Assembly: GCF_000446015.1 (NCBI RefSeq)
Contig: NC_022093.1
Span: 660,001-692,000 of the forward strand
Source of the DNA: Thermofilum adornatum
GTDB lineage: Archaea; Thermoproteota; Thermoprotei; Thermofilales; Thermofilaceae
Reading direction: 5' to 3'
Length of the DNA stretch: 32,000 nucleotides
The translations under genes were made by a program, and so were the position numbers. How positions within the stretch are numbered: the first letter of the stretch is position 1; each line of letters starts with the position of its first letter. Shown here one piece after another: positions 2,925 through 19,636 of this stretch. The notes below the pieces were generated by a model, which searched no databases, was not told the DNA's origin, and saw only the letters and a list, made by a program, of their open reading frames with translations.

Positions 2925-4766
2925 ATGTCTAGCGAGGCTGGCATCCAAAATTCAGAGGCAAAATCCGAACAACAGTCTCAAACCTTTATTCGGTCGCCAA
3001 TTGTAGTTGTCCTAGGACACGTTGACGCCGGGAAAACTACTCTTTTAGACAAGATAAGGGGGACAGCTGTGGCAAAGCGTGAGCCCGGAACAATGACACA
3101 GCATATTGGAGCATCTTTTCTGCCATGGAAGGCGCTGGAAAGTATTTGTGGAGACCTGCTAAACAGGATCAAAGCAGAGATCATTATTCCTGGCTTCTTA
3201 GTGATAGATACGCCTGGGCACGAGGCATTCTCGAACCTTAGGAAACGCGGGGGCAGCATTGCGGACATAGCGATTCTGGTTGTTGACGTGCAACGTGGCC
3301 TAGAGCAACAGACATTCGAAGCAATAGATATTCTGCGCGAACGGAAAGTCCCATTCGTTGTAGCAGTCAACAAGATTGACAGGATCCCTGGCTGGAAAAG
3401 TTTTCCGGATAAACCCTTCATAGAGTCTTTCCAAAAACAGGAGCCTTCTGTACAGTTTAGGCTGGAGGAATTTCTAAGCTACATTATACAGCAGTTTAAT
3501 TCCCTTGGCTTCCGCGCAGACAGATATGACCGTGTCCGCGACTTTACAAAGGTTCTCGCACTAGTGCCTCTCAGCGCCCTGACTGGGGAAGGCGTCCCTG
3601 ACTTGATGCTTGTCTTAGCTGGGCTCGCCCAGAGATACTTGAAAAAGAGACTCGAGACAAAGATTAGTTCTGGCAGGGGCGTACTGCTCGAGCTAAAGGA
3701 AGAAGTCGGGCTAGGCACCACTGCAACGCTGATTCTATATGATGGAGTTATAAAGCGCGGAGACCTAGTTGTAACTGGCGGTCTAAATGGTCCAATAGTT
3801 ACAAGGGTGAGATCCCTTTTAATGCCTAAGCCACTGGACGAAATGCGGTCGCCAGAAGACAAGTTCCAAGAAGTAAAAGAGGTTGTAGCCGCCGCCGGTG
3901 TCAAACTTGTAGCCGAGGGGCTTGAAGAAGCGATAGCAGGCGCACCTCTCTACGTTGTCACAAACGAGTCTGAGATCGAGAAATTCAGCAAGCTCGTAGA
4001 AGAAGAAATAAAAGGAGTAAAGTTCGAAAAAGACGTTGTAGGCGTTGTTGTAAAAGCTGACACGCTGGGGACCCTGGAGGCACTAATTGGATTCTTGAAG
4101 AAGAACAATATACCTATACGTGTAGCAGACATTGGCCCCGTCGCTCGTCGCGACTTGGTGCACGCATTAATGGTCAAGGAAAAAGACCCGCTCTATGCCG
4201 CAATTCTCGCCTTCAACGTGAAGATTCTTCCCGAAGCCAAAGAAGAGGCCGCAATGAACGGTATACCAATCTTTTGGGGAAACATAATGTATAGACTGGT
4301 AGAAGATTTCCAGGCATGGCACCAGGCCCAGAGAGAACAAGCCATAAAAGCCGCGTTCCAGAAACTAACGCCTCCAGCTGTTGTACAGATACTGCCGGGC
4401 TACGTTTTTAGGAGAAGAGACCCCATAATAGTAGGGGTTAAAGTAATTACTGGGCGTATCCGTAGCGGCGTCCCTCTTATAACTAAAACAGGTAAGGAGA
4501 TAGGAGAGATAATGCAGATCCGTGAACATGAAAACGTGCTAGAATACGCCTCTGAGGGGGCAGAGGTAGCCATCTCGATCAGAAGCAAAGCGATGGTTGG
4601 GAGACAAGTCAACGAGGGAGACTATCTCTACTCGGATATACCTCTGGATCAGATAAACACCCTGTTGGAAAAATATGACAAGTATCTTACAGAAAACGAG
4701 AGAAACTATTTAAAGAAACTGTTAAGATTTAAAATGGGGCTTAGTAGCTCAATAGAGTACCCCTAA
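2925..4766 (+). CDS. infB: Translation initiation factor aIF5B (IF-2 homologue)
   Basis: The GTPase motifs are VVVLGHVDAGKTTLLDKIRG, IDTPGH and AVNKID. The length (613 aa) and domain order are typical of aIF5B, and no intein is present. Confidence 0.95.
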   Translation: MSSEAGIQNSEAKSEQQSQTFIRSPIVVVLGHVDAGKTTLLDKIRGTAVAKREPGTMTQHIGASFLPWKALESICGDLLNRIKAEIIIPGFLVIDTPGHEAFSNLRKRGGSIADIAILVVDVQRGLEQQTFEAIDILRERKVPFVVAVNKIDRIPGWKSFPDKPFIESFQKQEPSVQFRLEEFLSYIIQQFNSLGFRADRYDRVRDFTKVLALVPLSALTGEGVPDLMLVLAGLAQRYLKKRLETKISSGRGVLLELKEEVGLGTTATLILYDGVIKRGDLVVTGGLNGPIVTRVRSLLMPKPLDEMRSPEDKFQEVKEVVAAAGVKLVAEGLEEAIAGAPLYVVTNESEIEKFSKLVEEEIKGVKFEKDVVGVVVKADTLGTLEALIGFLKKNNIPIRVADIGPVARRDLVHALMVKEKDPLYAAILAFNVKILPEAKEEAAMNGIPIFWGNIMYRLVEDFQAWHQAQREQAIKAAFQKLTPPAVVQILPGYVFRRRDPIIVGVKVITGRIRSGVPLITKTGKEIGEIMQIREHENVLEYASEGAEVAISIRSKAMVGRQVNEGDYLYSDIPLDQINTLLEKYDKYLTENERNYLKKLLRFKMGLSSSIEYP

Positions 4767-12585: not shown

Positions 12586-13293
12586 ATGTCGAGCAAGAAG
12601 AAGCTTAGTATAGCAAGGCTTGAGAAGGGAGGAAAGCGGTACGAGATATTTGTGGATGTTGAAAAAGCCTGGAAATACAAGAACGGTGAACATATCAATA
12701 TTAAAGAAATAATAGAGGGAGAATTCATCTATTACGATGCAAATAGGGGCCTTAAAGCTTCAGAGGCAGAGCTGAAGAAAATCTTTGGAACAGAGGACAT
12801 ATATGCTATTGCCGAGACTATCCTAAAGAACGGTGAACTGCTTCTTACAACTGAGCAGAGACGGGAACTAATTGAGCAGAAAAAGAGACAGATCATCGAG
12901 GCTATTTCCCGTAACGCTGTCGACCCTAGGACAAACGCACCTATCCCCGTCAAAAGGATAGAGCTAGCACTTGAGGAGGCACGGGTAAATATAGATCCAT
13001 TCAAACCCGTCGAGCAACAGCTCCCCGACGTCGTTAAGGCCCTAAGAATGATACTACCAATGAAGATGATGCGCGCCATAATGGCTGTTCATATTCCAGC
13101 AGCCTACGTGGGTAAAACCTACAGCACCATTGGCAAAATGGGCAAGGTTCTACGTGAGAACTATCTTAGCGACGGCTCGCTACAGCTGGAAATAGAGATA
13201 CCCGCAGGGATGCAGACAACTCTAATAGAGAGAGTCGCCTCTCTGACAAAAGGAAACGGCGAAGTAAAACTACTTAAAACAGAAAGCGTATAG
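12586..13293 (+). CDS. SBDS-family ribosome maturation protein (Sdo1)
   Basis: [26 protein letters not shown]...[29 protein letters not shown] matches the SBDS family. Its position between psmA and rrp4 is conserved. Confidence 0.88.
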
Positions 13294-13301
13294 GTGTCAC
13301 T

Positions 13302-14000
13302 ATGCCGATATATGTTAAGGATAGACAAATAGTGGTGCCAGGAGAAGCAATTGGTGAACAGGGAAAAATAAAGATAGAGGGACACGTCTTCAGGATTGGG
13401 AAAAAATACTATTCAAAGGTGCTAGGAGTCGTAACAATAAACGAGGACGCAAAGGTTCTTAGAGTAATACCCCTGAAGGGAAAATATTTCCCTGTCGAGG
13501 GTCACACAGTTATAGGAAAAATCATTGACGTTGGCTTCACTAGCTGGGACGTTGACATAAATTCTCCATACACAGCTGTCTTGCCTGTTTCCGAGGTTAC
13601 AAGCAAGCCTGTAACAATCTCTAGGACAGACCTCTCCAAGATACTTGACGTTGGAGACCTGATACTGGCGAAAATAGTCTCGTTTGATTTAAACAAGGAC
13701 CCTGTGCTCACAATTAAGGAGTCTAAGCTTGGCAAGATACCACGTGGCGTCCTCGTCGAGATACCTCCACAGAAAATACCGAGAATAATCGGGAAAAAAG
13801 GCTCAATGATCTCAATGATAAAAGAAATGCTCGGCGTCGAGCTCATAGTTGGTCAGAACGGTAGAATAGTTATAGTTGGAGAAGACCCATACAAGGTTGA
13901 ACTAGCCGTGTTAACAATCAGAAAAATCGAGTCAGAGGCTCATACCACTGGATTAACAGATCGTATTAAGAAGTTTATAGAAGAGAGGTTGAGAACATGA
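13302..14000 (+). CDS. rrp4: Exosome complex RNA-binding protein Rrp4 (S1 + KH)
   Basis: It has an S1-like middle region and a KH motif [14 protein letters not shown]. It lies directly upstream of rrp41 with an ATGA overlap. Confidence 0.9.
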
Positions 14001-14731
14001 AGAAGACTCCACCAGAAAGACTAATAGATGAAAATGGAAGAAGAATCGATGGGCGACTCCCAGACGAGATGCGGCCGCTACGCATAGAGGCCGGGGTGCT
14101 CAAGAACGCAGACGGCTCGGCATACGTAGAGCTAGGCAACAACAAGGTCATAGCCGCGGCATATGGCCCAAGAGAAGTCGTGCCAAGGCACGAGGCACTG
14201 CCTGACCGCGCGGTTTTCAGATGCAGATATACTATGTTGCCGTTCTCGGTGGACGAAAGGAAGAGTCCTCAGCCGTCTAGACGCGAAGTGGAGCTTTCAA
14301 AAGTTATTAGAGAGGCCCTTGCTCCGGCGATTTTCCTCCAGGAGTACCCGAGAACAGCAATCGAGGTCTACATAAACATTATTCAGGCAGACGGCGGAAC
14401 AAGAACAGCAAGCATAATAGCTGGGGCGGTGGCACTTGCAGACGCAGGCATCTCGATGAGAGACCTCGTAGCCGCCATAGCCGTCGGGAAAATAGGAGAT
14501 ATACTAGTCCTAGACATAAACGGCATAGAAGACCAGTTCGGAGACGGAGACATGCCGATAGCCATGATGCCGAGCAGGGGAGAAATAACACTTCTCCAAG
14601 CAGACGGAGTATATACGCCCCAACAAATAGAGGAAGCAATCAAGCTCGCACAAAAGGCAATCCAAAAGATATATGCCGAGCAGGTGCGAGCATTAAAATC
14701 AAAGTATGAAGCGATAAAAGAGAGTGAGTAA
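13997..14731 (+). CDS. rrp41: Exosome complex exonuclease Rrp41 (RNase PH domain)
   Basis: [47 protein letters not shown] and ...[21 protein letters not shown] show the RNase PH fold. Confidence 0.93.
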
Positions 14732-14732
14732 A

Positions 14733-15575
14733 ATGTCTGAGGAAAGGATATATCTACCCTCCATAAAGCGGGACGTTATACTTGCCTCACTAGCAAAGGG
14801 CGAGAGACTAGACGGGAGAAAATTCGACCAGTACCGCGAAATAAGGCTGGAAAAAGGCATAGTGGGCAAAGCCGAGGGCTCCGCCAGGGTATACATAGGA
14901 TCCACACAGGTTATCGCCGGTGTAAAACTATCTATAGGCAACCCCTTCCCTGACACGCCAAATGAAGGAGTCCAAATAGTAAACGCCGAGCTATCACCCC
15001 TAGCGTCCCCGCTCTTCGAGTGGGGGCCCCCAGGCGAAGAAGATATCGAGCTTGCAAGAGTCATAGACAGAGGCCTTCGAAGCGCCCGCACCGTAGACCT
15101 CTCCAAACTTGTAATAATACCGGGCACGAAGGTCTGGACTCTCTACATTGACATATACCCCTTAGACCACGACGGAAACATCATAGATGCGGCGGGCCTC
15201 GCTGCCCTCCTTGCACTCCTAGACACAAAGGTCCCAAAAACCACAGTAGACAATGGAAAGATAACTGTCTTAGAAGAAAAAGACCCGCTACCCGTAACCA
15301 ATCTTGTAATCTATGTAACCGTCGCAAAGATAGACGAATACCTTATCCTCGACCCTACACTCGAAGAAGAACTTGCAGCCGACGCAAAAATCACCTTCGG
15401 AGTAACGGAGAAAGGAGAAATATGCGCAATACAGAAGAGCGGCGAGGGATCCTTCAAGCCAGAAGAAGTCCTCAAGGCAAGAGACCTAGCGATAAATGCC
15501 TCGAAGCAACTTTTTGAAGCCGTCAAGAAAACTGTAGGCCTCGCAGACACGCCTAAGCAAGCTCAGCAAGCGTAG
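14733..15575 (+). CDS. rrp42: Exosome complex component Rrp42
   Basis: GERLDGRKFDQYREIRLEKGIVGKAEGSARVYIGSTQVIAGVK is RNase-PH-like and non-catalytic. The ATG at 14733 lies 2 nt after the rrp41 stop; a GTG at 14724 is also possible. Confidence 0.9.
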   Translation: MSEERIYLPSIKRDVILASLAKGERLDGRKFDQYREIRLEKGIVGKAEGSARVYIGSTQVIAGVKLSIGNPFPDTPNEGVQIVNAELSPLASPLFEWGPPGEEDIELARVIDRGLRSARTVDLSKLVIIPGTKVWTLYIDIYPLDHDGNIIDAAGLAALLALLDTKVPKTTVDNGKITVLEEKDPLPVTNLVIYVTVAKIDEYLILDPTLEEELAADAKITFGVTEKGEICAIQKSGEGSFKPEEVLKARDLAINASKQLFEAVKKTVGLADTPKQAQQA

Positions 15576-15588
15576 CACTACCGCTAAA

Positions 15589-15596
15589 TTTATATT
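15589..15596 (+). promoter_or_regulatory. TATA-like box (TTTATATT) upstream of rpl37ae
   Basis: It ends 33 nt upstream of the ATG at 15629. AGGTG lies at 15617-15621. Confidence 0.4.
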
Positions 15597-15628
15597 AATG
15601 ATGACCTTCTCTCCCCAAGGTGTAAATT

Positions 15629-15901
15629 ATGGGTAAACACACGAAAGTCGTCGGGCCAGCTGGACGCTTTGGCGCAAGGTACGGAGCCACACTCCGTAAA
15701 AAAGTCGCAGCAATAGAGAGAAAAATGAAGGGCAAACACAGGTGCCCAAGGTGCCAAGCAGTCGGCACGGTTAGGCGACTCAGCGTCGGCATCTGGTACT
15801 GCGAAAAATGCGGCTACAAATTCGCTGGCGGGGCCTGGCTGCCAAAGACAGAAGCTGGAAAAACATTCACACCAGAAGAACTAAAACAAATGGGACTCTA
15901 G
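15629..15901 (+). CDS. rpl37ae: 50S ribosomal protein L37Ae (eL43)
   Basis: [62 protein letters not shown] is the L37Ae zinc ribbon. Confidence 0.9.
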
Positions 15902-16705
15902 CGACTTTTTCGCTAGACAGGCCACTTCTCTCGGGGACAGCTCCCTAACCCTTTTCTCTTCTGAAATATTACAATTTTCGAGAAGCTCCCTCGTCGCTCT
16001 CCTGTCCACTTGCAGGCCAAATTCAAGCGCCCTGGCTATCTTCCTGTTTATGTAGGGAAAAACCCTCTTAGTAAACTCCTCAACAACCCTCACCTCTTTG
16101 AGGTCCCTGTCCCGCCTAGGCACAAGCCTCAAAAAAGACGTGTAAACCTTGGGCCTAGGATAGAAAGAGTAGGGGGAAACATCAAACAGCCTCTCGGCAT
16201 CATAACACAGCCGTGCTATAACACTGAGCCTGCCATAGTTCCTCGACCCCTCACTAGCGAGAACACGGTCAGCAACCTCCTTCTGAACCCCCAGAAAAGC
16301 CTCTTCCAGACCAAGGTCATAACACAGCCTAACAATCAGAACAGACGACAGGTTAAACGGAGTGTTCGACACTGCAACATGCCTCGACAAACTATTCTCA
16401 AAACACGTAGCATCACAAAGCATAAGATCCACATTGCCGACACCCCGCCTCTCCAGCTCACGCTTCAAAAGCCCCAGAAAAACCCTGTCAACTTCACAGC
16501 CATAGATATACTCCGCTTTTCTGGCCATATAGAGAGTCAAACTGCCCAAGCCACTCCCAACCTCAAAGACAACCCTGTCCTCTACCAGAGACGCAACCCT
16601 CTCAGCGACCAAATCATCAACCAAAAAATGCTGGCCAAGACGCTTCCTCACCCCAACAAGACCCGCCAATCCATACACATACTCCCTAAGCATACCACGC
16701 GCCAC
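15881..16705 (-). CDS. rsmA: 16S rRNA (adenine-N6,N6)-dimethyltransferase KsgA/Dim1
   Basis: [15 protein letters not shown]...[16 protein letters not shown]...[10 protein letters not shown] matches the KsgA family. A TATA-like box read on the - strand lies at about 16726-16736. The 3' end overlaps rpl37ae convergently by 21 nt. Confidence 0.9.
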
Positions 16706-17085
16706 AAGAGCCCCAGACCATCATTTTATAAACAACAATCAGAACCACCTATAAAAAACGTTAACGCGAACAAAAAGAAAAACCTCATAATACATGGAAC
16801 CACAATGAGGCTACCCCTCTCCACAAGAATCATCCAACCTCATTCCCTTTCATAAAACATTTTTCTAAAACTATATTGATTGTATTTTTAAAGAGAATTT
16901 TTCAGAGTATGAGCTGAATGCTAATGAAGACTTATTGGTTTATGTCAGCAACTCTTTAGCTGTCAATGTAGACAAAACTAATTCTTGTCTCAATTGAAGC
17001 ACCAAACATCTGAGATAAAAGGTGGTCTAGGCGAATGGGTTCCCTTTTTCCGGGTTTTATGTATTCGGTAACTTTCTCTTGAGTT

Positions 17086-17722
17086 TGGCCGCTCGAGCCC
17101 GCAACTGTGTGGGCGTGTGACCAGCGGCAATCGTCTAGGGCCCCTTGGGCAACATGCATCCCCTCGGGGCCGCGTGTACACGCCGAGCACGTGGGATGAC
17201 CCCCAGCTAGAGTATGCTCGGCGTGGGTAGGGGGGACGCAGATGGCTAGGGGTGGGCCCGCAGAGGGCCGGGTAGCCTAAAGCATGCAGCCCGTCCGCCA
17301 AAAAACGAGTCTTTTTTCTGGCCCCTTTCCATTTTTTCTTCTTTCCCCTTTTCCCCGATCCGCCCCCACCCTCATATGGGTGGCGCCCCCAAAACAGGGG
17401 GCGGCTTCGACGCCCGAACCGTGTATGGGGGACCCTGCACGGCTCTGGGCAATGAGGGTCGCGCCTCGCCACGGGAGACCCTGACAGGCGCGGCTAGGGG
17501 AAGGGGGAAAGGGGCCAGCTACTGAATGCCTTGCCTTCACTATACACGGCAGTCCAAAAACACTCATAGACCCACACATGTGCCCGTCCCGCCGGCCCCT
17601 GGGGCCTAGCCGGATCCATGCCTCCGCGCCCTCACAGGGCGCCCCCGGATCCCAGGCTCCGGGGTGAGCAGGCATGGATATGGCTACAGGCCCCGAGGGA
17701 AGGCGGACGGGCCCCACCGACC
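17086..17722 (+). ncRNA. Large G+C-rich, highly self-complementary non-coding block: unclassified structured RNA(s) or a structured leader of the downstream ORF. Strand is inferred from context only.
   Basis: Composition jumps sharply: 47 of 60 nt are G/C in 17581-17640, against 14 of 60 in 16861-16920. All ORFs inside are Arg/Pro/Gly-rich nonsense. Many perfect helices are present, including the long-range pairs 17289-17299/17702-17712 (11 bp), 17318-17330/17506-17518 (13 bp) and 17614-17622/17671-17679 (9 bp). In a hyperthermophile with a moderate-GC genome such islands usually mark structural RNA. Confidence 0.5.
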
Positions 17723-18894
17723 TACTAGCAGAACTATACAGTAGAACACAGCTAGCGCAAAGCCAGCTAGGCAACCTGTTCAGCGGGCAGAAAAAATACT
17801 TCTACAAGACATCAGAAGCCATAGTTGACATATTCGACCTCCCACTAGACAAGGCAGACACATTGCGAGACTTTGCTGAGAAAGCCGTCAACCTGCTGGA
17901 CAAGGCATACCCACAAGCAGAGGCAAAGCTACAGAAACTATTGAAAGCCCTAGAAAGCAACAACGTCAAAGTCGAGCTAGGACCATGTGCTAAGAAGACG
18001 CTTCACGTCACGCCAGAAGGGGAAAAATGGTATGTCAGTGCTCATATGGTAGAGGATAAGAGATGGCTAATAAGCCTACCAATCTACAGGGTAAGCGCCG
18101 ACGCCGAGTTCCCAGACATACTCAACGTATCCGACCAAGACCTCTACTACCTACAGGCAGGATGGCGGGCAAGCGACGAATCCTATGAAGGAGACAAACC
18201 TAAGATGGGGACAACACAGCAATGGCAAGTATTCGCGTGGACAGCAGTGAGATACGGCTACTTAAGGGTTTATTTAAAAAACCTGAACTTTAACAAGAGT
18301 GGACCGACAATTCATTGGGTGTTAACTGCAAAGAGCTGGAACCAGCAGTGGCCCACGCGTGAAGGAAAGAAACAGGCACAGCAAGTAGCAAAACGGCATC
18401 CACTAGGCTTGCTGGCTTGGTACCTCGGCGACGGTAGGAGACACAAACACGACCTCTTATATGCAGTTGGAGACGACGAGGAATATAAGCCTAAAAACCT
18501 TATCCCAGAAATACTCCAAGCTGCGTACTATACAGGCTACGGAAAACTGCTAGACCTCCTAGAAAGCGAAAAATGGATAACACTGAAAAAGATTAAACCT
18601 AGAAAGCAACCAATATACGCAACACTCCTAGGACACACTTTCTGGCTTGTATATTTTTACAAAGAATTGAGTGCAAGAACACTATTCAAAGACCTCGGCG
18701 AAGCAGAAAAGCTGACAAAAGTCCTGGCAGACGTAGGCCTACAGGCAAAAGTGCGCACGTGGCAGTATCAGGGACGTGGTCCGTACTATTTTGTCGAATT
18801 AGATCAAACATCCGTCCTAAGACTAGCCGAAAACAATCAAGAATGGCGCTATGCACTCAATCAGATAGCACAAAAATACAGAAAACAGCTCTAA
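17674..18894 (+). CDS. Hypothetical 406-aa protein with two degenerate LAGLIDADG-like motifs (possible homing-endonuclease-like fold)
   Basis: This long ORF has host-like composition and no competing frame. The motifs are YLQAGWRASDE (aa 159-169, nt 18148-18180) and LLAWYLGDG (aa 246-254, nt 18409-18435). Each is followed by beta-strand-like segments, and the two acidic residues are 85 aa apart. I recognise no other family. Confidence 0.6.
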   Translation: MDMATGPEGRRTGPTDLLAELYSRTQLAQSQLGNLFSGQKKYFYKTSEAIVDIFDLPLDKADTLRDFAEKAVNLLDKAYPQAEAKLQKLLKALESNNVKVELGPCAKKTLHVTPEGEKWYVSAHMVEDKRWLISLPIYRVSADAEFPDILNVSDQDLYYLQAGWRASDESYEGDKPKMGTTQQWQVFAWTAVRYGYLRVYLKNLNFNKSGPTIHWVLTAKSWNQQWPTREGKKQAQQVAKRHPLGLLAWYLGDGRRHKHDLLYAVGDDEEYKPKNLIPEILQAAYYTGYGKLLDLLESEKWITLKKIKPRKQPIYATLLGHTFWLVYFYKELSARTLFKDLGEAEKLTKVLADVGLQAKVRTWQYQGRGPYYFVELDQTSVLRLAENNQEWRYALNQIAQKYRKQL

Positions 18895-18975
18895 AGGCTA
18901 CCTAGGCTCGCGGAAAACCCACCCCTCTACACGAAAAATTTAATATCCCTCAAAACTTTCTTATTTTTGATTATA

Positions 18976-19052
18976 GGCCTCGGTGGTGTAGCCTTTGGAA
19001 GCACGCCGGCCTGTGGAGCCGGTGGTCCCGGGTTCGAATCCCGGCCGAGGCC
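18976..19052 (+). tRNA. tRNA-His (anticodon GTG) with genome-encoded G-1 and discriminator C73; no CCA encoded
   Basis: Manual cloverleaf: acceptor GCCTCGG/CCGAGGC preceded by an extra G; D-stem GTGT/GCAC; anticodon arm CCGGC-CTGTGGA-GCCGG; T-arm CCGGG-TTCGAAT-CCCGG. A TATA-like box lies at 18938-18950. Confidence 0.9.
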
Positions 19053-19182
19053 CTTCTGCTTCTATATTAAATGTCCTTGGGAATCAATCATCTAATCTAG
19101 CTATTTTTCTGATTGTTTTCATTTCTGGAGTTGTAGCGCCTATTTTATTGTTGGAACTCTCTTGCGTGTATGAGAGGTAGAA

Positions 19183-19286
19183 TGGCGCCGGGGCCGGGAT
19201 TTGAACCCGGGCACCCTTTTGGGGTAGTGGATCTCGAGTGTGGCTTTTGGGGTGTCCACCGCCTTGGTCCGCTCGGCCACCCCGGC
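19183..19286 (-). tRNA. tRNA-Ser (anticodon CGA), class II with a long variable arm, a 16-nt intron (19238-19253) in the anticodon-loop region, and encoded CCA
   Basis: The reverse complement reads GCCGGGG-TG-GCCGAGCGGACCAAGGC-G-GTGGAC[ACCCCAAAAGCCACAC]TCGAGATCCAC-TACCCCAAAAGGGTG-CCCGGGTTCAAATCCCGG-CCCCGGC-G-CCA. After removal of the 16 nt the anticodon arm is GTGGA-CTCGAGA-TCCAC. G73 and the long variable arm fit Ser. Confidence 0.85.
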
Positions 19287-19420: not shown

Positions 19421-19468
19421 TGTAGATTTATTTATATGTGTGTGATGGATTGTTTGCGTGGTTGTGAT

Positions 19469-19636
19469 ATGTCGAAGTGGAGGCTGAGGTGTGAGAAGTG
19501 CTCGTCTGAAAGGGTACTGGACCTTGGTTTTAATCTTTATGAGTTTAAGAAGGTTTATCTGTATTGTCCAAGGTGCCAGGAGAATACTCCCCATGTTGTT
19601 CTAGGCGTGGAGGCTCCCGAGGCTGTGCAGGCCTAG
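19469..19636 (+). CDS. Small zinc-ribbon protein (55 aa), function unknown
   Basis: MSKWRLRCEKCSSERVL...YLYCPRCQENTPHVVLG has two CxxC pairs. The TATA-like box TTTATTTATAT at 19427-19437 ends 32 nt upstream of the ATG at 19469. Confidence 0.5.
   Translation: MSKWRLRCEKCSSERVLDLGFNLYEFKKVYLYCPRCQENTPHVVLGVEAPEAVQA

Follow-up and report, generated by a model that had tools for sequence, protein, structure and literature searches.

Within a 32,000-nucleotide stretch of the Thermofilum adornatum genome (contig NC_022093.1, positions 660,001 to 692,000 of the forward strand), which we refer to as the window, we analyzed a free-standing open reading frame (ORF) of 406 amino acids that runs from ATG to TAA at positions 17674-18894 of the plus strand and encodes a LAGLIDADG-derived protein. 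This ORF is part of a larger Thermofilum-type unit consisting of a TATA-like box, a structured leader of about 600 nt, the ORF itself, and a conserved right end. A tRNA-His gene (GTG; 18977-19053, plus strand), detected by ARAGORN and by Rfam, starts 82 nt past the stop codon of the ORF. The original prediction for this locus had correctly given the ORF, its two LAGLIDADG-like motifs and their spacing, and it had described the gene as free-standing near tRNA-His, which we confirm with the correction that the distance is 82 nt, not 81 nt. In the following, L-numbers designate family loci and P-numbers the proteins of relatives.

The two motifs are YLQAGWRASDE (residues 159-169, nt 18148-18180, plus strand), which contains D168 and E169, and LLAWYLGDG (residues 246-254, nt 18409-18435, plus strand), which contains D253; the two aspartates lie 85 residues apart. 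Both motifs are the best-conserved stretches of the protein family: G163, W164, R165, A166, D168, and E169 as well as L251, G252, D253, and G254 are invariant in an alignment of 41 sequences. In a second alignment of 30 sequences that reaches down to 17-24% identity, D168 is again invariant and D253 is conserved in at least 90%, which bears out the proposed aspartate at the acidic position of each motif. The ratio of nonsynonymous to synonymous substitution rates between close relatives is 0.25-0.35, and the protein is therefore under purifying selection. Compared with most relatives the ORF is C-terminally shortened by an in-frame TAA, behind which the coding sequence for ...LLELAENPP remains, untranslated, at 18895-18925.

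An AlphaFold2 model based on the 41-sequence alignment reached a predicted local distance difference test score of 90.4 for the full-length protein and 91.1 for the core alone (residues 140-406). It divides the protein into a helical hairpin (residues 14-94), a beta domain (98-146), a complete first domain (154-239), and a second, split domain (243-387). Residues 154-239 show the exact alpha-beta-beta-alpha-beta-beta-alpha order of secondary structure elements, with motif 1 closing the first helix (154-165) and strands following at 169-180. Motif 2 ends helix 243-253 and leads into a beta hairpin plus one helix; helices 289-306 then form an insertion ahead of a beta-beta-alpha-beta-beta-alpha module at 321-387; the strand-like segments that had been proposed behind each motif are confidently modeled. 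When the core model was compared with the Protein Data Bank (PDB) by Foldseek, all of the 50 top matches were LAGLIDADG enzymes or maturases and no competing fold appeared; for the full model the matches were almost exclusively LAGLIDADG proteins. The best matches of the core model were the archaeal intron enzymes I-Tsp061I (probability 1.0, E 3e-5; the full model gave it E 8e-4) and I-DmoI, and others were the Tli VMA intein endonuclease, I-OnuI, the bI3 maturase, and I-AniI.

Sequence profiles point in the same direction. The profile A7, built from the 30 sequences down to 17-24% identity, ranked I-DmoI first among 177,635 PDB sequences (E 0.008): Motif 2 of the family (LLTxxLGDG) aligned with the first motif of I-DmoI, and the C-terminal beta-alpha-beta-beta module with its second domain. 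Pfam LAGLIDADG_3 was the commonest weak match, found in eight of the 41 members (best 0.012) and likewise weakly in P0176 and P0126; in P0176 the family motif 2 aligns with the motif part of this Pfam model. The distant relative P0224, which hhalign ties to the family with 96.8% probability, passes LAGLIDADG_3 outright (27.9 bits against a cut-off of 22.5) and touches LAGLIDADG_WhiA at threshold. Structure, profile, and Pfam (by transitivity) thus agree, and they support a LAGLIDADG-derived family that is not canonical. Motif 1 is very degenerate relative to the LAGLIDADG signature. By inference, the protein would be catalytically competent and make a site-specific DNA break.

The gene had been called an orphan, a label that does not hold. 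A word-indexed search of 5.8 billion proteins yielded 80 relatives at E<=1e-19 with 94% to 27% identity, every one of them annotated as 'hypothetical'; they come from Thermofilum species (e.g. TCARB_0030, T. adornatum 1505) and, at greater distance, from Thermoproteus and Pyrobaculum. An exhaustive profile search of 1.84 billion cluster representatives gave 282 representatives at E<=0.001, many of them fragmentary, and a metagenome scan confirmed at least 585 loci; one 170-kb contig among them holds two copies at a distance of 40 kb. Scans of genomes returned at least 11 copies in Thermoproteus sp. CP80, at least eight in one Thermoproteaceae metagenome-assembled genome, two in Pyrobaculum sp. 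WP30, and fragments in Vulcanisaeta, with many copies placed at contig ends. Among the copies found, the family is confined to Thermoproteales, archaea of hot springs, no member is annotated, and two branches can be distinguished: a Thermofilum-type branch, which includes the window, and a Thermoproteaceae-type branch. Our search of the full-text literature found no published description of the family, its RNA, or its tRNA association. The family is an undescribed, Thermoproteales-restricted set of free-standing LAGLIDADG-derived genes. Carriage by viruses was considered and rejected, as neither the protein nor the leader RNA has a match in the viral contigs of IMG/VR. Two copies, L008 and L018, lie on short contigs binned as Candidatus Nanopusillus sp. 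(61% G+C in L018); they look like mis-binned contigs of Thermoproteaceae hosts rather than true DPANN genes.

Upstream of the ORF, the window is conspicuous by its base composition: 59% G+C at 17001-18000 against 44-50% elsewhere. This region folds far more stably than its shuffles (z = -5.4). The leader is preceded by the TATA-like element TTTTATGTATT (17056-17066, plus strand), its putative promoter, which all loci with module 1 retain; the L031/L041/L040 subfamily, whose upstream part differs in other respects, has it there as CATTTATGTATT. The leader comprises a GC-rich structured module 1 (17083-17519, plus strand), a variable linker (17520-17575), and a multi-helix module 2 (17576-17725). 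Neither module belongs to a known RNA family: a comparison of 16997-17725 with Rfam 15, both under gathering thresholds and with the limit relaxed to E<=10, gave nothing beyond chance-level hits to miRNA and PTE models, and this null result leaves RNase P, the signal recognition particle RNA, group I and II introns, HEARO, and similar families unsupported as candidates.

Module 1 is 90-96% identical in all pairs of nine loci whose proteins are 43-90% identical; in the pair L056 and L063, the values are 95% for module 1 and 43% for the protein. Its 3' half was found by nhmmer ahead of many further copies, and the GC-rich upstream region is retained in differing neighborhoods, namely in L031 of T. 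adornatum, in L032-L037 of Thermofilum sp., and in dozens of metagenomic loci. RNAalifold detected compensatory pairs at columns 318:346 (CG 11 / GC 8) and 320:344 (UA 10 / CG 6). Module 1 contains many G-U pairs, which on the other strand would be A-C; the RNA is therefore read from the ORF strand. The linker exists in two unrelated versions among loci that share module 1, one of about 60 nt (window, L042, L046) and one of about 115 nt (L032 and others). In the middle of module 1, the sequence AAAAAC-GAGTC-TTTTTT(T) at 17311-17320 is conserved in all subfamilies; its oligo-T run could act as an archaeal terminator, which would make the first ~235 nt a separate small RNA, or an attenuator. In the L031-type leader (L031 ~4455-4520, L041, L040), module 1a is replaced by a different segment of about 120 nt that carries ATGATGA...GATGACGATGA, reminiscent of a C-box or K-turn, around the hairpin CTCCGTGACC/GGTCACGGAG.

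In module 2, a long outer stem carries two hairpins that are invariant (GCGCCC-loop-GGGCGC and CCCCGGA-loop-TCCGGGG), whereas the stem is rebuilt with different sequence in the L047/L049/L059 clade. It encloses both the Shine-Dalgarno-like sequence GGGGTGAG (17661-17668) and the ATG (17674): The 3' strand of the second hairpin continues into GGGGTGAG, 5 nt before the ATG, and the ATG together with the first ~14 codons is predicted to be base-paired inside a module 2 helix. These ~14 codons are missing from relatives that lack the helix. Since they belong to module 2, relatives without this module, such as L048, start at about residue 16 and have a plain TATA box, and since they pair in module 2, conservation of the protein is higher in its disordered N-terminal peptide (MDMGTA..GWRTGP) than elsewhere. 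The covariance model R1 of module 2 scores 138.6 bits in the window and matches the plus strand at the gene start of 30 Thermofilum-type loci. The expectation that homologues co-occur with an upstream RNA is accordingly strongly borne out in the Thermofilum-type branch, where the GC-rich RNA belongs to the unit, but fails in the Thermoproteaceae branch. A mere leader role does not explain the strong conservation of module 1. Two further roles of the RNA were rejected. A function as RNA guide found no support: In 13 loci, the stretches of exact identity or complementarity that the leader shares with the downstream tRNA or spacer do not exceed those in shuffles, the sole long leader match being to an unrelated tRNA gene in L061. 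That module 1 is a resident host RNA gene serving as a landing pad is contradicted by the occurrence of the same RNA in different contexts, by weaker versions that precede tRNA-linked copies, and by one locus in which divergence is greater in the RNA than in the flanking DNA.

The leader and the right end of the unit are connected by a predicted long-range stem that brackets the ORF. Its 5' arm, IR-L (GGCTAGGGGTGGGCCCGCAGAGGGCCGGGTAGCCT, 17244-17278, plus strand), lies inside module 1 and has a predicted 3-nt bulge AGA at 17262-17264, and its 3' arm, IR-R (GGCTACCTAGGCTCGCGGAAAACCCACCCCT, 18896-18926, plus strand), is the conserved right end and has an A-rich bulge at 18914-18917. In most copies the right end (GGCTACTCGAGCTCGCGGAAAACCCACCCC, 18896-18926) encodes the C-terminal LLELAENPP. 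It is conserved even where it is untranslated, that is, in the window, in L041, and in the decayed remnants in L031 and L118, and conservation behind a stop codon means that it matters as nucleic acid. The IR-L:IR-R duplex of the window has a computed energy of -49 to -51 kcal/mol, compared with -25 +/- 4 kcal/mol for shuffles, none of which was as good (0/1000), and IR-L is the best partner of IR-R anywhere in 16900-18850.

The same duplex architecture is predicted in about 19-20 loci that cover all Thermofilum-type subfamilies. From the outside inward, it comprises an outer helix of 8-14 bp, a 2-4-nt A-rich bulge in the 3' strand, a 4-5-bp helix (CCGC:GCGG), a variable 3-nt bulge in the 5' strand (AGA, AAA, AUA, UAG), and an inner helix of 10-16 bp. 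Several changes are compensatory: GAGTAGCC:GGCTACTC is replaced by GAGCAGC:GCTGCTC in L067, GGGGTGGG:CCCACCCC by GGGGCGGG:CCGCCC in L048, and TGGCT:AGCCA by GGGCT:AGCCC in L057, while L069 has an extra G:C pair. Moreover, the variable outer parts of cognate arms pair better than those of non-cognate arms (permutation p 0.004). These compensatory changes and the permutation test support co-evolution of the arms, and the support for the stem consists of the duplex energies and the permutation test. As modeled, the stem geometry resembles, in relaxed form, the bulge-helix-bulge (BHB) substrates of the archaeal splicing endonuclease. A pattern search of the collected family loci for an uninterrupted GGGGTGGG...CCCACCCC hairpin returned none. 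Conservation between contexts starts at about 16997-17007 in loci of the window type and about 780 nt upstream of the ATG in those of the L031/L041 type. In the subset L009, L092, and L106 of the Thermoproteaceae-type copies, the 5' leader sequence CGGCGTTTAACGCGTTATGG is complementary to CCATGCGTTAACCAACGCCG just past the stop codon, with 3-nt bulges on opposite strands, a pairing that is not significant over all copies.

The position of the unit in front of a tRNA gene recurs throughout the Thermofilum-type branch. With ARAGORN and intron detection, a same-strand tRNA was found to start between about -160 and +85 nt from the computed stop codon in at least 17 distinct loci; the called anticodons are His, Pro(GGG), Pro(TGG), Arg(TCG), Leu(TAG), Asn, Ile/Gln, Met, Ala, and Ser, corresponding to some nine isoacceptors, with a few calls of intron-containing tRNAs being uncertain. 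The junction is stereotyped in at least 17 loci: ...GCGGAAAACCCACCCC is followed, after 5-10 nt, by the B recognition element (BRE)/TATA-like sequence AAAAATTTAA and, about 30 nt later, by the tRNA. In the window, the corresponding box is AAAAATTTAATAT (18934-18946, plus strand), which lies 31 nt before tRNA-His as its promoter. The cassette lies immediately ahead of this box, so that the promoter stays with the tRNA. Cassette-free tRNA genes have similar TATA boxes and no cassette-end motif, the exceptions being two tRNA-Arg genes that carry a 120-nt remnant of the cassette end. With what we estimate to be about 46 tRNA genes in a genome of about 1.8 Mb, the probability of tRNA adjacency by chance is well under 1%. 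Several Thermoproteaceae-type copies also lie 8-150 nt from a tRNA gene, in convergent orientation. Many copies are located away from any tRNA, and one group lies at the distal end of a CRISPR leader. In this group (L032, L039, L042, L045, L046, L054, L056, L057, L063, L064, and L071), a CRISPR array and a leader of about 230 nt adjoin the left end of the cassette; these are probably one orthologous locus in related Thermofilum strains. The array of L032 occupies 3727-4023 (repeat GATGCAACTCAGAAAGAATTGAAAG, minus strand, period of about 63-69 nt), and between the near-identical strains of L032 and L033 similarity stops inside the array at 3989, with different genes upstream.

Several comparisons bear on mobility. 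Copies of the family, including those of Thermoproteus, are flanked by unrelated housekeeping genes. They also decay: Locus L118 is syntenic with the window (74% nucleotide identity over 13001-16693), and between KsgA and tRNA-His it holds only the decayed right end of a cassette; a cassette remnant is also present in L031. Finally, alleles differ within one locus. In L057 and L063, the flanks are 95-99% identical, module 1 about 90%, and the right end 80-94%, whereas the ORFs share only about 55% nucleotide and 46% protein identity. Divergence in situ cannot produce this pattern, and the sequence comparison indicates that a divergent paralogue took the cassette's place, the cross-overs falling in the conserved RNA and in the right end. 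Gene conversion triggered by an endonuclease would leave exactly such a pattern, which we take as the only indirect sign of homing. As to the KsgA gene of the window (15881-16705), its closest relatives share 98%, 74%, 53%, and 47% identity, and at E<=1e-40 no named Thermofilum genome contributes any of them; the RNA of the cassette, in contrast, is 93% identical to that of Thermofilum sp. L032, which hints either that the cassette has spread horizontally or that the RNA is extremely constrained. In L118, the tRNA-His (2728-2850, compared with 18977-19053 in the window) is inverted relative to KsgA and seemingly contains extra intron-like sequence, and the decayed cassette right end (GGCTACTTGACCTCGCGGAAAACCCACCC, on the other strand) abuts the 3' end of this tRNA.

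Family membership, copy number, decay, RNA linkage, stem, and tRNA position are observed, and the explanation that we favor for them, with a probability of roughly one half, is a selfish, intron-like LAGLIDADG cassette that spreads by gene conversion. In this mechanism, the protein would cut a specific DNA site, and repair from a cassette-bearing copy would spread the cassette or replace a resident one, the conserved RNA and right-end sequences serving as homology arms. By pairing both the start codon and the Shine-Dalgarno-like sequence, module 2 would keep translation low; insertion sequences likewise limit translation by fold-back inhibition, and the mRNAs of phage intron endonucleases by occlusion of the ribosome binding site. 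The stem may serve in RNA processing, possibly as a substrate of the splicing endonuclease, and thereby define or circularize an ORF-bearing RNA, as happens in rRNA introns with an ORF, and the tRNA-proximal site could be either a tolerated or a recognized target. The suggestion that the gene is a relocated intron endonuclease comes close to this explanation.

A number of results weigh against the favored explanation. No target site or empty site has come to light, though no collection-wide search aimed at empty sites was made. A Pfam search with the window protein gave nothing up to E<=10, so that the proposed HMMER check against LAGLIDADG_1/2/3 came out negative, and NCBIfam and PHROGs likewise had no match. 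Global superposition with canonical enzymes is poor, with template modeling (TM) scores of 0.12-0.29 and root-mean-square deviations of 16-20 A, and this qualifies the outcome of the AlphaFold and Foldseek comparison, which otherwise returned the anticipated core fold and LAGLIDADG proteins as top matches; furthermore, the second domain is interrupted by helices 274-306, so that the canonical pseudo-dimer, in which two domains pack through the motif helices around one active site, is at most a candidate arrangement. The stem is not a canonical 3-4-3 BHB: The bulge on the 3' side comprises two to four A residues and often faces one or two unpaired bases. The left arm lies inside the conserved left part rather than at its end, which also argues against simple transposon ends, and the conserved oligo-T run at 17311-17320 could stop transcription ahead of the ORF. 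In the Thermoproteaceae-type copies, the long-range duplex is not consistently significant. Their loci have no large RNA (R1 matches 0 of 21) and just a TATA box, a leader of about 60 nt, and CCTGT repeats; the RNA is therefore not needed for the core function of the protein. The repeats, of CCTGT/ACAGG type, occur five to six times ahead of a strong AAGGCTTATATAGC promoter in loci such as L106, L114, L080, and L095, at about -60 to -140 from the TATA box.

Among the competing explanations, the most probable holds that the protein is an RNA maturase or RNA-binding partner that folds or processes its own leader or autoregulates translation, that it has lost DNA cleavage or never possessed it, and that the copies spread by ordinary recombination. 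Fungal LAGLIDADG maturases such as bI3 and I-AniI provide precedents, and both are among the Foldseek matches; the tight linkage of protein and RNA in the Thermofilum-type branch, the higher conservation of the leader RNA than of the protein, and the location of the start codon and the Shine-Dalgarno-like sequence inside invariant, operator-like hairpins would fit such a role as well. Yet the Thermoproteaceae-type half of the family keeps both motifs and the acidic residues invariant without having such an RNA, maturase activity does not require conserved acidic residues (as is established for bI3), and multi-copy spread and cassette replacement call for a mechanism of mobility; we consider a maturase unlikely. 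Lower still is the probability that the protein has been domesticated as a sequence-specific DNA-binding protein at or near tRNA promoters and that its copies are paralogous host genes. WhiA, a LAGLIDADG-derived transcription factor, would be a precedent, to which P0224 adds its threshold-level contact with LAGLIDADG_WhiA, and purifying selection and the location right beside tRNA promoters are what one would expect. Domestication is difficult to reconcile, however, with a patchy copy number between one and more than 11 per genome, with decay to remnants, with the replacement of alleles at one locus in near-identical strains, with the many copies that have no adjacent tRNA, and with the retention of aspartates at the catalytic positions.

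We consider it similarly improbable that the unit is a DNA transposon, with the inverted repeat as terminal inverted repeats and the LAGLIDADG-like protein as nuclease or transposase. A conserved imperfect inverted repeat of about 32 bp does bracket the ORF, its arms co-vary in divergent subfamilies, and the element is multi-copy and dispersed. The left repeat, however, lies 170-250 nt or more inside the moving part, pairing as RNA is the better fit to the conserved bulges and to changes that are compatible with G-U pairs, the protein has no match in any known transposase family, and no target-site duplication was seen in a search that was not rigorous. A specific candidate of this kind, PaREP2, was rejected: Only one of the 41 members matched it (PaRep2b, E 0.087), and none of the Pyrobaculum and Thermoproteus members scanned did. 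The P. oguniense paper calls PaREP2b merely a putative transposon (PMC3558965). Least credible of all is a false resemblance, in which the protein would be unrelated to LAGLIDADG enzymes and its motifs coincidental. The lack of Pfam, NCBIfam, and PHROGs matches and of informative PDB-sequence matches (searches with the single protein and with a close-family profile returned only a de novo helical design) would follow naturally from it, as would the low TM-scores; what makes it highly improbable is that three independent lines agree on the superfamily and on the motif positions, with no competitor in Foldseek. The resemblance, which the original prediction had left in doubt, is accordingly not a false one, even if the window protein superposes poorly and goes unmatched in Pfam.

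How the cassette of the favored explanation relates to established systems is best seen from its nearest structural relatives, I-Tsp061I and I-DmoI, which are encoded in a Thermoproteus 16S rRNA intron and a Desulfurococcus 23S rRNA intron, respectively. These enzymes are the best structural and profile matches and come from the same or neighboring archaeal orders; as in the window, a single chain carries two motifs with an acidic residue ending each motif helix, and the ORF is bracketed by a long-range RNA stem. The window protein differs in being twice as long, with the predicted ~150 extra N-terminal residues and a split second domain, in superposing poorly, and in having no curated-profile match. 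Of the hallmarks of the LAGLIDADG superfamily, it shows the motifs and the core fold. Its gene, moreover, is situated outside rRNA or any recognizable host gene and is multi-copy and dispersed. Archaeal BHB introns and pre-rRNA processing stems likewise have inverted repeats that flank a long RNA and two bulges on opposite strands around a short helix. Such stems are cut by the splicing endonuclease and the products circularized, and ORF-bearing BHB introns encode LAGLIDADG enzymes. In the cassette, by contrast, the motif is relaxed (3-nt bulge, 4-5-bp helix, 2-4-nt A-rich bulge or internal loop), the 'exons' would be its own leader and intergenic DNA, and cleavage and circularization are putative. 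Within the window, no rRNA or other Rfam family flanks the cassette, and its 3' side is intergenic DNA before the tRNA promoter; because no host gene is interrupted, the element is not an intron in the accepted sense.

The free-standing homing endonuclease genes of phages (seg, mob) resemble the family in being solo nuclease-type genes between unrelated host genes, in their patchy presence, in their decay, and in the replacement of alleles with co-conversion of flanks. They encode GIY-YIG or HNH enzymes and have no large dedicated RNA, whereas the archaeal family is chromosomal, has no IMG/VR match, and possesses the ~600-nt structured leader. Together with ORF-bearing BHB introns, they are the closest known architectures. 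A structured RNA immediately 5' of an endonuclease ORF in a mobile element is also known from twin-ribozyme group I introns, in which the lariat-capping ribozyme GIR1 upstream of a His-Cys box endonuclease ORF matures the endonuclease mRNA; the cassette RNA is unrelated to it, lacks an Rfam match, and occurs in an archaeal host with another enzyme family. Repeated insertion tens of bases upstream of many tRNA genes that are left intact is shared with yeast Ty3 and with TRE5-A and DGLT-A of Dictyostelium. These are retroelements that target via RNA polymerase III factors; the cassette has neither reverse transcriptase nor integrase, and the resemblance is one of outcome only. In WhiA and other host proteins of LAGLIDADG fold, too, the scaffold is degenerate, has acquired further domains, and occurs apart from introns and inteins, but WhiA is single-copy, conserved, and vertically inherited and has lost its catalytic residues, while the archaeal family is multi-copy and decaying and has kept both acidic residues. 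The features of an insertion sequence or DNA transposon are missing, there being no transposase match and the left repeat being internal.

To our knowledge, archaeal LAGLIDADG enzymes have been known almost only from rRNA introns and inteins. The present family adds a large, unannotated, lineage-specific set of free-standing relatives with a putative promoter of their own, a dedicated structured RNA whose conservation exceeds that of the protein, a closing stem like that of an intron, and a strong preference for the front of tRNA promoters; the leader, for which Rfam has no entry, is a new large structured RNA of archaea. If the mechanism proposed above holds, the cassettes would show an intron endonuclease leaving its intron or, conversely, ORF-bearing archaeal introns arising from free-standing cassettes, and they would add a tRNA-proximal 'safe haven' strategy to those of prokaryotic mobile DNA. 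They would also be a source of LAGLIDADG scaffolds that are thermostable and highly diverged (proteins 43-90% identical at one locus) and that might be useful in meganuclease engineering. The large folded RNA and the repeated position in front of tRNA genes suggest a new kind of selfish, intron-like element. A bolder version, which we put forward only tentatively and consider rather unlikely, is a new class of archaeal element that is processed as RNA and intron-like yet located outside host genes, whose integration is directed upstream of tRNA promoters, whose ultra-conserved ~450-nt RNA is a functional partner (e.g. a ribozyme, scaffold, or processing module), and whose stem the splicing endonuclease cleaves, so that a circular mRNA for the LAGLIDADG nuclease results. 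If true, tRNA-upstream targeting would have its first counterpart among prokaryotes, and the element might supply the missing link that connects free-standing endonuclease genes with archaeal introns.

The neighbors of the cassette in the window are all ordinary archaeal housekeeping genes: upstream, genes for an RNase PH/exosome subunit, L37Ae, and KsgA/Dim1, assigned via the syntenic locus L118, and downstream, a gene for a coiled-coil ATPase. In L031 of T. adornatum 1505, a tRNA cluster holds a further insertion of about 1.4 kb relative to L040 (6955-8383), which contains a 509-aa gene without Pfam match on the minus strand, between tRNA-Pro and the cassette remnant before tRNA-Arg; it may be another mobile insertion in the same cluster. 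Behind tRNA-His, the window contains an intron-containing tRNA at 19186-19286 (minus strand), whose near-identical copy in L038 is called as Ser(CGA) with a 16-nt intron. It was missed by default ARAGORN and by the Rfam gathering run on the whole window and reached 41.8 bits (cut-off 29) when a short stretch was searched with Rfam. Between the tRNAs and the coiled-coil ATPase gene, an ORF of 66 amino acids with two CxxC pairs (19436-19636, plus strand) encodes a zinc-ribbon-like protein that is about 96% conserved in L038.

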